Positions 1-5,577 of a stretch of 64,000 nt of DNA are shown here, in pieces. The stretch spans positions 1 to 64,000 of the forward strand of contig JANNWY010000083.1 in assembly GCA_031409335.1 (NCBI GenBank), in the 5' to 3' direction. Position numbers and translations under genes: made by a program. Positions within the stretch are counted from its first letter, which is position 1; every line of letters starts with the position of its first letter. The notes under the pieces are model-generated. The model was not told the origin of the DNA, searched no databases, and saw only the letters and a list, made by a program, of their open reading frames with translations. This DNA comes from Chthoniobacteraceae bacterium. Lineage in GTDB: Bacteria; Verrucomicrobiota; Verrucomicrobiia; Chthoniobacterales; Chthoniobacteraceae.

Positions 1-2466
1 GCCAATGGCGCGCTCGGCAATGCCGCGGGCACGCTCTTCTTCAAGGGGGGCACTTTGGAGATCACCGGCACCACCTTTACCTCAACGGCTCGCGCCATTT
101 CGTGGGGCACCGGCGGCGGCGGGTTCAAGGTCGCGGACGCCAGCAATACCTTCACGGTCGGCCAGTCTCTGAGCGGCAGTGGCGTGCTCAGCAAGACGGG
201 GCCGGGAACGCTGGTCCTTTCCGGTACGAACACTTACACGGGGCAAACGACGGTTTCCGAAGGCATCCTGCGGCTGGCTGGAGGTAACGCCATTGCGAAT
301 AGTGGCACCGTGGCGCTGACCAATGCGAGTGGGGTGACCTTGGATTTGAATAATACCAGCGAGACGGTCGGCAGCATCACCGGCGGTGGCCTGAGTGGCG
401 GCAATATCAGCCTGGGCTCGGGCACGCTGACCGTGGGCGGGGGCGACTTTGCGGGGGTGATCAGTGGAGCGGGCGGCAGCCTTGCCGCGACGACCAGCCC
501 CCTCCTCGTGAAGGGAGCGAACACTTTCACCGGCGGCACCACGATCAGCAGCGGAGGATCGATCTGGGTAAAGGCTGGCGGCGCACTCGGCACGGGCGTG
601 ATCGCGGTGACCGGCAATGGAACCTACAACGATTTAGCGAACGCCATCGTCTTTGAGCGGAGCGGTGCGCTTGGCGGTGCCGCAGCCACGCCAACGCAGG
701 CGATCACGGTGAATAGCGCGGGATTCATCACCAGCCTGAACTCCTTCACCACGCTGGGTGCGGTGACGCTGAATGGCGGCATCATGGAGACCGAAGGAGG
801 TGAGAGTGCGGCGCATCAGGCGTTCTTTCTGCGCGGGACGGTGACGGTGCAACCGAGTGCCGCGACCGCCTTTATCCGTCCCTATTCGCCCGCCACGCCA
901 AATGCCGGGATTCATCTCCTCAGCGGAGCCTCCGGCGGGACGACTTTCGACGTGGCGAATGGCAGCGCAGCCAATGATCTCGTCGTGACTGCGAAATTGA
1001 TCGATCCCCCGGCGGAGGCCGCGGGCACCGGGAGCGTGATCAAAACAGGAGCCGGAAACATGCAACTCGGTGGGGCGAACACCTACAGCGGTGAGACCAG
1101 AGTGGATGCCGGGACGTTGGAGGTGAGCGGCACAGGCTCAGTGAGCGCGACTTCTTTGATCACCGTCAACAACGGCGGGACGCTGCTCCTGAGCGGCAAC
1201 ATTGCGACCAATAAGATCAACGACGCAGCCGCGGTGAATTTGAATGGCGGGACTTTCAATGTCGGAGGTCTCAGCGGGCTCGATGAGCAGGTCGGCACGC
1301 TCACGCTGAGCAGCACCTCGACCCTCGACTTCGGCGCGGCCAGCACCAGCGAAAGCCTGCGCTTTGGCGATAGCCATACCGCTACCTGGGCCGGGCGACT
1401 CAATGTCTGGAACTGGACCGGCGGCGTGGATCATTTATATGTCGGCACAGACTTCGGCGGGCTGACCGCGTCACAGTTGGCGCAAGTGCGTTTTTACAGC
1501 GACAGTGGGAGCACGCTGCTCGCCGATGGCGCGGCGTTCGCTGGCATGGGGGAGATCACGCCGGTGCCCGAGGCTTCCACCGTCTATGTGGCGGTGGGTC
1601 TGTTCGGCCTGATTGGCTGGCGGGAAAGGCGCAAAGCGCGGCGCCTCCGCATCGTTCTCAACTGCGCGCTGTTCGGGAGTTTGGCCGGCATCGGCTGGAC
1701 GCATGGCGATGTGGATGAGGCGATCGCTGCGGCCACCCAGCAAATTGCCGCGCAACCCGCGGACGCGAAGCTTTACCTGCGGCGCGGCGGACTCCACCGG
1801 ATGCATCGGGATTGGATCGCGGCGGGCGCGGATTTCGACAAAGCGCTGACGCTCGACCCGCAACTCATCGTGGCGGAACTGATGCGCGGCGAGATGCTCT
1901 GTGAGGCGGGACGGGCGAAGGAGGCGAAGCAGCCGCTTGATCGTTTCCTCGCGCAGCGTCCGCAGGATTCCGCCGGCCACGCCGCGCGCGCCCGGGCTTT
2001 CGCAGCGGCAGCAGAGTGGTCCGCCGCCGCGGAGGATTTCGCGCAGGCCATCGCGTTTGGGCCAGCGCCCGATCCCGCGCTGTTCATCGAGCGAGCCGGC
2101 ACGCTGCGCGCAGCGGGCAAAATGGATGATGCCATCCGGGCGCTTGACGACGGAATCGCCCGGCTCGGTCCACTGATCACGTTGGTCCAGTTGGCGATCG
2201 ATCTTGAGGCCGAGGGGGGTCATGTGGATGCAGCGCTCGCCCGGTTGGCGAAAGTAGTGGAAGCGACCCCGCGCAAGGAGCGCTGGCTTTTGCGTCGCGG
2301 CGAACTGCTGGAGAAATCGGGCCAACGCGCCGCTGCCCACGATGCCTACACCGCCGCGCAAGCCGCTCTCGCGAAAGTTTCCACCGCGCGCCGGGCGACG
2401 CCCGCGACGCAAGAGGTCTCGCGGGCCATCGCTGCGGCGCTCATCCGCGTCGCTCCGGGATCGTAG
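1..2466 (+). CDS. Autotransporter-associated beta-strand repeat protein with internal PEP-CTERM signal, fused in frame to a TPR protein (5'-truncated by window edge)
   Basis: Frame open from base 1. Repeats LSKTGPGTLVLSGTNTYTGQTTVSEGILRL and VIKTGAGNMQLGGANTYSGETRVDAGTLEV; ITPVPEAST-TM-RERRKARR ending at 1644 (VPE at 1564); Ala-rich TPR helices from 1702. Confidence 0.85.
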   Translation, partial: ANGALGNAAGTLFFKGGTLEITGTTFTSTARAISWGTGGGGFKVADASNTFTVGQSLSGSGVLSKTGPGTLVLSGTNTYTGQTTVSEGILRLAGGNAIANSGTVALTNASGVTLDLNNTSETVGSITGGGLSGGNISLGSGTLTVGGGDFAGVISGAGGSLAATTSPLLVKGANTFTGGTTISSGGSIWVKAGGALGTGVIAVTGNGTYNDLANAIVFERSGALGGAAATPTQAITVNSAGFITSLNSFTTLGAVTLNGGIMETEGGESAAHQAFFLRGTVTVQPSAATAFIRPYSPATPNAGIHLLSGASGGTTFDVANGSAANDLVVTAKLIDPPAEAAGTGSVIKTGAGNMQLGGANTYSGETRVDAGTLEVSGTGSVSATSLITVNNGGTLLLSGNIATNKINDAAAVNLNGGTFNVGGLSGLDEQVGTLTLSSTSTLDFGAASTSESLRFGDSHTATWAGRLNVWNWTGGVDHLYVGTDFGGLTASQLAQVRFYSDSGSTLLADGAAFAGMGEITPVPEASTVYVAVGLFGLIGWRERRKARRLRIVLNCALFGSLAGIGWTHGDVDEAIAAATQQIAAQPADAKLYLRRGGLHRMHRDWIAAGADFDKALTLDPQLIVAELMRGEMLCEAGRAKEAKQPLDRFLAQRPQDSAGHAARARAFAAAAEWSAAAEDFAQAIAFGPAPDPALFIERAGTLRAAGKMDDAIRALDDGIARLGPLITLVQLAIDLEAEGGHVDAALARLAKVVEATPRKERWLLRRGELLEKSGQRAAAHDAYTAAQAALAKVSTARRATPATQEVSRAIAAALIRVAPGS

Positions 2467-2635: not shown

Positions 2636-3691
2636 TTAGGAAAGTTTCGCGCGCGAGCCGGTCCGCGCGGCTTCGTAGATCGCGAGCACGAGGGCGACGG
2701 CGTTGCGGGCTTCCGCGCCGGGGATCATGGGCGGACGGTTTTCGCGCAGTGCATCGACGAGATCGGCGACGAGGCGGCGGTGACCTTCGTGGGTGATCGC
2801 CATCGGGTCCGCGGCGCCGCCCTTGATCGCAGGGGAACCGTCGTCTTCGAGAACTGCCGCGTCTTCGGGAAGCGGCTCCGCGAATTCCCAGCGCACGAGC
2901 CGGTCGTTGACGAGCACGGCGGTGCCGCGTTCGCCGATGATTTCGATTCGCAAATCGGAGCCGGGATACGCGGAAGTCGCGGCCTCGATCGAACCGAGCG
3001 CGCCATGCGCAAAGCGGAGTGACGCGACGATCGTGTCCTCGGCCTCGATGCCGGGATGGGCGAGCGTCGCGGAAAATGCGCTGACTTCAGCGGGCATTCC
3101 GGCAAGCCATTGCAGGAGATCGACGGCGTGGATGCCTTGATTCATCAGCGCGCCGCCGCCGTCGAGCCGCCACGTTCCCTTCCATGCCGAGCCGGTGTAA
3201 TAGCTCCGCGCGCGCCACCATTTCACGTACGCGCTGCACAGCGTGAGTTGCCCGAAACGACCGGCGGCGATCGCGCGCTTCAAGATGCCTGCACCGCGTC
3301 CGAGGCGATTTTGGAAAATGCCCGCGAGCATTCCGCCGCCGCGTTCCGCCGCGGCGAGGATGCGGTCCACGGCGTCCAGGGAAATCTCCAGCGGCTTTTC
3401 GCAAAGCCCGGCTTTTCCCGCCTCCAGCAAAGGCACCGCGGCCTCCGCGTGCGCGCCGCTCGGCGTGGTGATGCACACCGCGTGGACCGCGGGATCGCGG
3501 ATGATTTCCTCCAGACTTTCCGCCGCCTGGCATTCGTGCCGTTTCGCAAAATCCGCGCGCGCCGCGCTGCCACGCGAGAACGCGGAGATGAGCTTCGCAC
3601 CCGCATTCGCGCGGATCGCGCCGGCGTGGACATCGGCGATGGCACCGGTGCCGATGATGGCGAAGCCGATAGCGTTTGGCGCGGAATTCAT
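2636..3691 (-). CDS. Gfo/Idh/MocA family oxidoreductase
   Basis: FAIIGTGAIA Rossmann motif, CEKP, GGGALMNQGIHAVD. ATG at 3691; the 794-aa ORF-track version includes an antisense shadow of bioB. Confidence 0.9.
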   Translation of the reverse strand: MNSAPNAIGFAIIGTGAIADVHAGAIRANAGAKLISAFSRGSAARADFAKRHECQAAESLEEIIRDPAVHAVCITTPSGAHAEAAVPLLEAGKAGLCEKPLEISLDAVDRILAAAERGGGMLAGIFQNRLGRGAGILKRAIAAGRFGQLTLCSAYVKWWRARSYYTGSAWKGTWRLDGGGALMNQGIHAVDLLQWLAGMPAEVSAFSATLAHPGIEAEDTIVASLRFAHGALGSIEAATSAYPGSDLRIEIIGERGTAVLVNDRLVRWEFAEPLPEDAAVLEDDGSPAIKGGAADPMAITHEGHRRLVADLVDALRENRPPMIPGAEARNAVALVLAIYEAARTGSRAKLS

Positions 3692-3805
3692 AGCTGGGAC
3701 ATTTTGAAAAAGAGCCAATACGGTGAATGACTCCCTGCCGACAATCTTTTCGGTTTCGCCTTGGACGGCTCGCGAGTCTCCACTAACAACACTGCACTTT
3801 TCCGC

Positions 3806-4768
3806 ATGAACCTCACCGCACTCCAGGCGCTCTACGATCTTCCCTTCTTCGATCTCATCCAGCGTGGGCGCGATGCGTATTTGGAAAACTGGAGCAACAA
3901 TGAAGTGCAGCTTTGCACGCTGCTTTCCATCAAGACGGGCGGGTGCTCGGAGGACTGCGGCTATTGCGCGCAGAGTTCGCGTTACAAGACGGATGTGAAG
4001 GCGGAGAAGCTGATGGAAACGGCGGACGTGCTCGAAGTCGCGCAGCGGGCGCGCGAGAATGGTTCGACGCGCTTTTGCATGGGCGCGGCGTGGAAGGGTG
4101 TGCGCGATGGGGATGCGAAATTCGAGCAAGTGCTGGGGACGATCCGCGAAGTCAGCAAGCTCGGCATGGAAGTGTGCGTGACACTCGGGCAGCTCACGCT
4201 CACCGAGGCGCGCAAGCTCAAGGAGGCGGGCGTCACGGCTTACAATCACAACATCGACACATCGCCCGAGCACTACGCGAACATCGTCACGACGCATACT
4301 TTCCAAGACCGCGTGGACACCATCGCTGCCGTGCAGCAGGCCGGGATGGATGTGTGCTGCGGCGGCATCATCGGCATGGGTGAGACGGAATTGGACCGAC
4401 TGAAAATGCTGGAAGTGCTCACCAATTTCGATCCCGCGCCAGAGAGCGTGCCGATCAATTGCCTGATGGCGATGCCCGGCACGCCGCTCGCAGATCAGCC
4501 GCCGGTCGATATCTTCCCGCTCGTCCGCCTGATTGCGGTCACGCGCATCGTCTTGCCGAAGGCGAAAGTCCGCCTCAGTGCCGGTCGCACGCGGCTTTCC
4601 CGCGAAGGCCAGGCGCTGTGCTTTTTCGCGGGCGCGAACTCGATTTTTTACGGAGACAAATTGCTCACCGCGAAAAACCCCGGCGTCGATGAAGACCGCG
4701 ACCTGCTCGCGGAACTCGATCTGATCCCGCAGCAGCCGCACGCGGATCGGATGGCTTGCATGACGTAG
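3806..4768 (+). CDS. bioB: Biotin synthase (radical SAM)
   Basis: SIKTGGCSEDCGYCAQS (CxxxCxxC), YNHNIDT, ESVPIN, VRLSAGR, GANSIFYGDKLLT. Confidence 0.96.
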   Translation: MNLTALQALYDLPFFDLIQRGRDAYLENWSNNEVQLCTLLSIKTGGCSEDCGYCAQSSRYKTDVKAEKLMETADVLEVAQRARENGSTRFCMGAAWKGVRDGDAKFEQVLGTIREVSKLGMEVCVTLGQLTLTEARKLKEAGVTAYNHNIDTSPEHYANIVTTHTFQDRVDTIAAVQQAGMDVCCGGIIGMGETELDRLKMLEVLTNFDPAPESVPINCLMAMPGTPLADQPPVDIFPLVRLIAVTRIVLPKAKVRLSAGRTRLSREGQALCFFAGANSIFYGDKLLTAKNPGVDEDRDLLAELDLIPQQPHADRMACMT

Positions 4769-4773
4769 ATTTT

Positions 4774-5577
4774 CTACCCGCCGCGCATCAGCCACACCAG
4801 CGCGCCCCACAGCCGCACGCACAGCTCCTCGGTATTCCCCAAAAGCTCGCGTGCGAATGCGACGAGCGTGATTTCCGGCGCGGCGATGATGAGCAGCGCG
4901 AGGAGGAGCAGGAGATTCATGACGTAGATGATGACGAGCGAAAAGAAGGTGCCGTGATAGGTGAGGTCGCTTTGGCCTTTCGGGATCATCCAAAGGGTGA
5001 AGCTCATGTGGAACGCCCACGTCACACCGAGCAGGCCGAAGAGCAGTGGAGTGAACGAGGCGACGTTGTAGAACAAGCTGACGACGCCGTACACGGCGAT
5101 GACGGCGATGCTGTAGAGCGGGTAGAAATACGGCGCGAGCGCGATGAGGAAATTATTCGTGTCGGTGATGATGTGGCCGCCGTCGCGCCGGACCTTGAAG
5201 CGCATCACCCGGCCACCCATCGCCCAGACCCAGATGGCGTGGGTCAATTCATGGCCGAAGACATACACGCGCAGCGGGCGCGGCTCGCGGAAGGCCCAGA
5301 TGCTGGCGAAAAACACGGCCACCCACGCAGCCACGCCGATGACGAAAAAGCGAAACTCCTGCGTCGCCCAAAAGCGGTGATCGACGGCGGCTTGATGGAA
5401 GCAGGTGAAGAGGCTTTGCGTGAGCAGGCCGGCGACGGGCAGGAGGAAAATGGCGACGATCGTATTCAGCCACCACGTGGGAATCGTCCATGGCTCGGGC
5501 TCGCAGGTCCGCGCGCCTGCCATGAGGATTTTGCGAGGCGTGCGTTTGTTTTTGGATTTCGTTCGACTGGAAGCCAC
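4774..5577 (-). CDS. Integral membrane protein, peptidase M50-like HExxH metalloprotease
   Basis: Multiple TM segments, FGHELTHAIW motif, LIALAPYF. Confidence 0.65.
   Translation of the reverse strand: MASSRTKSKNKRTPRKILMAGARTCEPEPWTIPTWWLNTIVAIFLLPVAGLLTQSLFTCFHQAAVDHRFWATQEFRFFVIGVAAWVAVFFASIWAFREPRPLRVYVFGHELTHAIWVWAMGGRVMRFKVRRDGGHIITDTNNFLIALAPYFYPLYSIAVIAVYGVVSLFYNVASFTPLLFGLLGVTWAFHMSFTLWMIPKGQSDLTYHGTFFSLVIIYVMNLLLLLALLIIAAPEITLVAFARELLGNTEELCVRLWGALVWLMRGG

Follow-up and report, generated by a model that had tools for sequence, protein, structure and literature searches.

The window, which is the whole stretch of DNA that was analysed, comprises 64,000 nucleotides of one contig of a metagenome-assembled genome (G000:C83:1-64000). 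At its left edge lies one long open reading frame in which a PEP-CTERM-like sorting tag precedes another predicted export signal and a complete tetratricopeptide repeat (TPR) protein. The +1 frame is uninterrupted from base 1 up to the TAG at 2464-2466, in the codon listing as well as in the ORF list. Its features are as follows.

1..2466, + strand: single ORF, 5' end truncated by the contig edge, 821 aa visible
1..1560, + strand: passenger of autotransporter-type beta-strand repeats (PATR; PF12951 E 3e-19, TIGR02601 E 5e-22), from the C-terminal portion of a large surface protein of the PEP-CTERM type, with 8 paralogous ends in G000
1561..1578, + strand: PEP-CTERM signature, degenerate P-V-P-E-A-S (V-P-E 1564-1572, Ala 1573), PF07589 below cut-off
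1579..1620, + strand: first hydrophobic helix (transmembrane helix of the tag), mean hydropathy 2.47, in-frame GTG at 1588 and 1594
1621..1650, + strand: basic cluster RERRKARRLR (RERRKARR is 1621-1644), as in paralog tails and in TPR-family n-regions
1651..1701, + strand: second hydrophobic stretch (hydrophobic 1651-1698, Thr 1699) with G-W-T ahead of His as the predicted signal peptidase I site; the homolog P0009 ends alike
1702..2463, + strand: 254-aa all-helical TPR protein starting at His1702, with His1 and Gly2 invariant in its family, pLDDT 95.6

A first-pass annotation, made from the letters alone, had placed the tag, basic cluster, second hydrophobic stretch and TPR in one stop-free frame, with about 250 aa of TPR after His1702 and no in-frame ATG, GTG or TTG separating the basic cluster from the second hydrophobic stretch. 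The codon listing of 1-2466 bears this out, and the TPR part counts 254 aa. Two features had been missed: the GTG codons inside the first helix, and the degenerate P-E-A of the tag. There is also an in-frame TTG at 1681, inside the second hydrophobic stretch. GC3 is similar on either side of the junction (0.77, 0.83, 0.75), and thus gives no sign of foreign origin. The AlphaFold model of the TPR part is helical throughout; a fold search with it returned generic TPR superhelices as the best folds, and nothing more specific. The N-terminus of the passenger lies off the contig, and no other contig of G000 was found to share 21-55 bases with the C83 start. A contig from run X2 extends 1225 bases further past the C83 edge.

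Six runs (X1-X6) contain the stretch or part of it, the best matches being freshwater sediment metagenomes; no RNA run is listed among the matches. X1-X4 come from one study; X1 and X2 are possibly the source of the window DNA, while X4 is not flagged as a source. Contigs of X1 (900-2700), X2 (900-2103) and X4 (1605-1833) run across the junction without a single difference, and X3 has no contig over 1532-1682. A second study, P2 (X5 and X6, whose identical junction records were counted once), holds a relative that is about 94% identical, its flanks differing at 29/409, 61/961 and 43/729 positions. Gap-free contigs over 1481-1666 (7 differences) and 1645-1795 (3 differences) tile the junction in this relative; given a 31-letter overlap rule, no P2 contig was counted as bridging 1636-1674.

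The reading frame of the P2 relative is intact over about 6% divergence in the pieces listed. Its long records show a single coding gap, an in-frame one of 3 bases at 1376, and the pieces listed leave out 410-463 and 1422-1480. Third codon positions take 24 of the 38 passenger changes listed (p 0.0002), from 40 of 145 difference rows that do not include those of the junction. By codon, the listed passenger changes are 18 synonymous and 15 non-synonymous. Differences are somewhat sparser in the junction than in the flanks (10/337 vs 133/2099, p 0.012), with the caveat that the records could be from different strains.

The possibility raised in the first-pass annotation, that a base error hides a stop or start, is very unlikely. 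Of the 558 possible single changes in 1481-1666, 12 would create a stop; the junction differences of the P2 relative are not itemised. Even if a substitution introduced a stop, a new start codon would be required as well, and the two other frames remain open for 75 and 31 codons beyond 1621, so that one base change cannot give two genes. That an assembly chimera or a base error conceals two genes is largely refuted and very improbable: the genome is assembled from a metagenome, the ORF sits at a contig edge, X1 and X2 may themselves be the source, depths are low (2.5-10.7) and X3 lacks the junction, but X4 bridges 1635-1803 unchanged, a divergent strain from another study tiles the same junction with no joint or indel in those records, and at least two base changes would be required.

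The fused frame is confirmed as a genuine feature. It is also more than chance, because the tag sits where it does in paralogs that share the passenger end and tail, and because the second stretch ends at the very His that starts the mature TPR family.

The tag itself is a non-canonical member of the PEP-CTERM class, failing on position, signature and score. What had been called a full PEP-CTERM-like motif does have the hydrophobic helix (1579-1620) and directly after it the basic cluster (1621-1644), but reads Pro-Glu-Ala in place of Pro-Glu-Pro and stays below the Pfam cut-off, with a PF07589 score of 14.4 bits against 20.7. TIGR02595 does not report it, either directly or among 150 scored places. 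In the PEP-CTERM HMM check that had been proposed, the tag thus stays below the curated cut-offs, but it is homologous to terminal tags: the passenger end and tail are shared with paralogs, three of which (C88, C307, C196) pass TIGR02595. The G000 paralogs end in VPEPS..GL(V/I)GWRERRK plus 10-15 residues and then a stop; in C83, 275 aa lie beyond the tag.

With an HMM trained on the genome, G000 has 180 tags at 13 bits or more, of which 169 are within 40 aa of a stop. P-E-P is found in 167 of these 169 terminal tags, and PEA in 1. The C83 tag scores lowest of the nine WRE/YRE-type paralogs on this HMM (13.4 vs 18-31 bits). G000 has four PF09721 exosortase genes over the cut-off, and a signal peptidase I (TIGR02227). 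Exosortase cleavage at C83, as predicted from the tag, is doubtful because of the PEA.

Two named families were tried and rejected. The name of NF033207, midcut-by-XrtH, implies a mid-protein exosortase site, and C83 matches it weakly over both helices (profile 37-79). The score is 13.5 bits against a cut-off of 45, there is no XrtH match (E<=1e-10) among the four exosortases, and a search of 5 genomes with this profile found nothing over the cut-off. PrsT (TIGR02917), the PEP-CTERM system TPR protein of about 900 aa, scores 49.5 against 312 bits with the 254-aa C83 protein, which amounts to generic TPR likeness only.

The second hydrophobic stretch is the TPR family's own predicted signal peptide. 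In the standalone homolog P0009 the signal ends in an identical I-G-W-T before His, and the leader of P0010 aligns by eye with RRLRIVLNCALF. The stretch has the makings of a Sec signal for signal peptidase I: an n-region RKARRLR, an h-region with hydropathy 2.05, and Gly/Thr at -3/-1. It is weak for the family, that hydropathy being at the 5th percentile (2/39 family signals are as low) and Thr at -1 occurring in 1/39. The earlier idea that the basic cluster doubles as the tail of the tag and as the n-region of a signal peptide is supported by the paralog tails on one side and by the TPR-family signals on the other.

His1-Gly2 is invariant in 24 aligned members of the TPR family, which suggests that a free N-terminal His matters. 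The C83 TPR keeps this pair and 96 of the 104 conserved columns, while the second family His is lost (H5D). Its 8 departures compare with 1-7 in the 17 closest homologs and 12-19 in more distant ones.

Elsewhere, the TPR is usually a separate gene. In relatives, each of the 11 best loci is a frame by itself, 290-397 aa long and equipped with its own signal peptide. None of the 70 homologs of near length matches PF07589, and those with an intact N-terminus carry a signal peptide there, whose end directly precedes His. PEP-CTERM was found at 0 of the 80 TPR loci returned out of 106 confirmed genome loci; 10 of the 80 have long open frames upstream, with no tag in them. Searches for longer proteins (about 8000 candidates scored) gave generic TPR proteins and one TPR-phosphatase fusion (P0001), and no PEP-CTERM fusion. 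A metagenome scan with a single TPR protein gave 4 weak loci, which were left unused. The closest named TPR homologs are from Chthoniobacteraceae, to which verrucomicrobial group the host thus likely belongs.

The exported TPR family has no name. Besides the invariant N-terminal His-Gly it has conserved His/Asp in the first repeat, and a phosphatase as neighbour; P0001 is fused to one. A purple-acid-phosphatase-like gene is nearby at 56/80 loci, and the family is possibly a metal-binding partner of the phosphatase. The C83 TPR has no adjoining phosphatase gene; phosphatase-like genes of G000 are on C165, C193 and C293, C293 with its own TPR. The phosphatase-like gene at G000:C193:56154-64115, which has no TPR neighbour, adjoins what we take to be integrase-like and capsid-like ORFs.

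The passenger search covered 151 genomes of the family, of which 39 matched, and 29 loci from other genomes were fetched. In 28/28 homologous passenger ends the stop comes 27-44 aa beyond VPE, with no TPR match in any of them. The 29th locus gave no match in the same script, and stops 60 aa after its tag. Among the relatives' genomes and homologs searched, the fused passenger and TPR pair was found only in G000 and in the one relative that is about 94% identical.

Since the halves stand alone in all the relatives searched but that one, C83 is likely a young, lineage-restricted fusion using a recurrent junction type, and the pair is probably not a conserved polyprotein family. The first-pass annotation had offered a deletion-fusion as an alternative, and the fusion part is supported, both halves being separate genes elsewhere apart from this relative. 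Its proviso that all relatives might encode two genes, making this a one-off, largely applies to the passenger and TPR pair, but the P2 relative appears to keep the fusion. A deletion between two neighbouring genes appears to be the simplest origin; no genome with both genes adjacent and unfused was found among the relatives searched. The fusion point would be near 1636-1645, where the Arg cluster of the tag meets the Arg-rich n-region of the signal, judging by the leaders of P0009 and P0010.

The search of related genomes for an internal PEP-CTERM followed by a membrane stretch and TPR gave a split answer: the passenger/TPR pair was not found in the genomes searched, but the tag-plus-signal layout recurs widely. 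Within G000, 6/180 tags are followed by at least 200 residues (C83, C95, C152, C66, C153, C62). In C83, C95 and C152 the tag leads straight into a second signal-like stretch, in C66 and C153 this comes after about 55 aa, and in C62 there is none. This means that there are at least 3 cases of the layout among the 180 tags. A Met is found right at the junction in C95 and C152.

G000:C152:27659-31789 (- strand; L041) is a two-unit chain with a repeated domain and PATR passenger and an internal PEP-CTERM at aa 958, followed by a second signal, a paralogous domain and a terminal PEP-CTERM. It is a cleaner polyprotein candidate than the C83 fusion. G000:C95:14137-18720 (+ strand; L021) joins a small PEP-CTERM protein via tag and signal to a 1100-aa YVTN beta-propeller. 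In G130:C193 the pair is encoded by separate genes, and a tag-like helix lacking PEP lies ahead of the propeller ORF there. C66:22926-24167 (+ strand) and C153:34781-36571 (- strand) are paralogous small PEP-CTERM genes that run into the same downstream secreted family, with in-frame linkers that differ and measure 55-60 aa.

Four further junctions were seen in selected loci of relatives: one in G019, two in G017 (protein P0147) and one in G125. Chains of up to ten PEP-CTERM units exist in P0075 (2500 aa), L111 (G017:C264), L107 (G019:C398) and L084 (G125:C64), and most of these units are then followed by a signal-like stretch.

For a wider view, a profile was made from the three tight junctions; it gave 275 cluster representatives, of which the best 150 were examined. 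An internal tag is present in 121 of these 150, for a total of 216 internal tags and up to 10 tags per chain. A second hydrophobic stretch lies within 50 aa of the tag in 210/216 cases, compared to 270/3002 control windows. For 45 proteins ranked by the tag part alone this is 63/67. A small-x-Ala site occurs at 197/210 of these junctions (control 1090/2100), and P-E-P is kept in 214/216 internal tags. Met is kept at 56/210 junctions. A terminal tag ends 107 of 119 chains, and some of the 12 without one are probably cut short or missed. A TPR homolog is found in 0/150. As the set was chosen by a profile of such junctions and by summed scores of repeated tags, its rates are inflated; it shows existence and breadth, not rate. 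Judged by these sequences, the tag-plus-signal layout is general.

How might such a chain be handled by the cell? The fused C83 chain probably sits in the inner membrane as a hairpin of two helices; signal peptidase I likely frees the TPR protein from it, and an exosortase may free the passenger. A deletion would have brought the tag's Arg-rich tail up against the n-region of the TPR signal, likewise rich in Arg, with the loss of one stop and one start. Sec would export the passenger, whose N-terminal signal would lie off the contig. Helix 1 would then stop transfer and leave the Arg cluster inside, which is the topology expected for PEP-CTERM from the accessible text of PMC1569441 and from the positive-inside rule. 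Helix 2 would restart export, and the TPR would reach the periplasm. Signal peptidase I would cut before His1702, giving the normal N-terminus of the family. The exosortase would cut near P-E-A; if PEA blocks cutting, the hairpin would keep the passenger anchored. Release of the passenger by an exosortase is the working model for cyanobacterial PEP-CTERM proteins in the accessible part of PMC12188702. Since the junction is compatible with the usual topology of membrane proteins, cells would tolerate fusions of this kind, and these could arise repeatedly.

The original interpretation, a surface protein and a periplasmic TPR protein from one translation product, is thus partly supported. More tentatively, there may be a general and as yet unrecognised polyprotein route in PEP-CTERM bacteria, using exosortase plus signal peptidase I on chains of up to ten units, in which C83 would be a young, selected coupling of an adhesin to a TPR protein that needs its free His. 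The C83 copy is a weak example of such a route, with its PEA, its sub-cut-off tag and its marginal second signal.

It is also possible, though unlikely, that the fusion is tolerated and not, or not fully, processed. The passenger and TPR would then be tethered in the periplasm as one two-helix chain, with both signals decaying. This would fit the PEA and the lowest tag score among paralogs, the weak h-region and rare -1 Thr, H5D plus 7 more TPR departures, and the lack of a neighbouring phosphatase gene. It would also fit a remark in the accessible text of Haft et al. 2006 (PMC1569441) that tags at unusual positions may have no function and may drift. Against it, standalone P0009 uses the identical G-W-T-His site, C83 has retained His1-Gly2, and in the P2 relative the junction is no more variable than its flanks and the frame has stayed intact.

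Somewhat less probable again is an internal restart, with the TPR made mainly from GTG 1588 or 1594 behind a 36-38 aa leader, and the read-through chain as a by-product. Two in-frame GTGs are indeed available inside helix 1, annotated leaders in the TPR family measure 44-55 aa, and C95, C152 and the 56 class junctions mentioned keep a Met. However, there is merely a short GAGG 14 bases ahead of 1588, the GTGs belong to a tag helix that was inherited, with Val, Ala or Met at these places in paralogs, and 154/210 class junctions have no Met. With no stop in the way, ribosomes that come from upstream have to translate the whole fusion all the same.

If the two-helix chain is cut as proposed, precedents exist for the signal peptidase half. 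Viral glycoprotein precursors have internal signal peptides at which signal peptidase frees the downstream protein. The FbcH cytochrome b-c1 precursor of Bradyrhizobium japonicum is reportedly also one chain with an internal signal, from which signal peptidase frees the downstream protein. Unlike C83, these have no sortase tag, and they are conserved and experimentally shown. For the other half, work by Abdul Halim from 2017 is said, by its title, to have ArtA, of the exosortase family, process a non-C-terminal tripartite signal of an archaeal protein; this is an archaeal Tat substrate, unlike C83, and the likeness is by title alone.

C83 shares with PEP-CTERM/exosortase substrates the motif, helix and basic cluster after a passenger rich in Thr/Ser/Asn/Gly. 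It differs in that the tag is 275 aa from the end, reads PEA, and has a further export signal plus an entire protein behind it. By analogy, it would behave as though a canonical PEP-CTERM substrate had been fused to an ordinary Sec preprotein. According to the accessible text of Haft et al. 2006 (PMC1569441), 87% of PEP-CTERM tags have fewer than ten residues beyond them, and the accessible part of the myxosortase preprint (10.1101/2023.06.07.544157) treats the C-terminal position as a usual attribute of such tags.

A close published case is MXAN_5598, like C83 a protein with a sorting tag in its middle that stems from a probable gene fusion. In the accessible text of PMC11980579, its internal MYXO-CTERM is ascribed to the fusion of two genes, with the C-terminal part exported; the authors suggest that processing of the N-terminal part nevertheless goes on, and cite two references for mid-protein tags working. 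In contrast to C83, MXAN_5598 has another tag and another protease (myxosortase), that text does not mention a second signal peptide or cut, and the case is also a proposal. Internal tags as such have therefore already been published (MYXO-CTERM). The PEP-CTERM tag-plus-signal junction type is apparently undescribed: no paper on such polyproteins was found in a search of main texts that reached few subscription journals.

Should junctions of this type be cut, bacteria would have secreted polyproteins rather like those of enveloped viruses, and 'C-terminal' tags would serve as modular processing sites. In that case many exported proteins within long ORFs of Verrucomicrobia and other PEP-CTERM bacteria would escape annotation. 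The junction would also make for a simple exosortase assay; in the accessible text of the literature searched, no demonstrated exosortase cut site on PEP-CTERM proteins was found. The C83 locus alone is modest, yet its invariant first His gives the predicted product a sharp N-terminus.

Next to the fused gene, at 2636-5020 on the - strand, the window has a 794-aa ORF that is probably not one protein. Its part at about 2636-3691 is presumably oxidoreductase-like, after which we take the frame to stay open antisense to a biotin-synthase-like gene (3761-4768, + strand).
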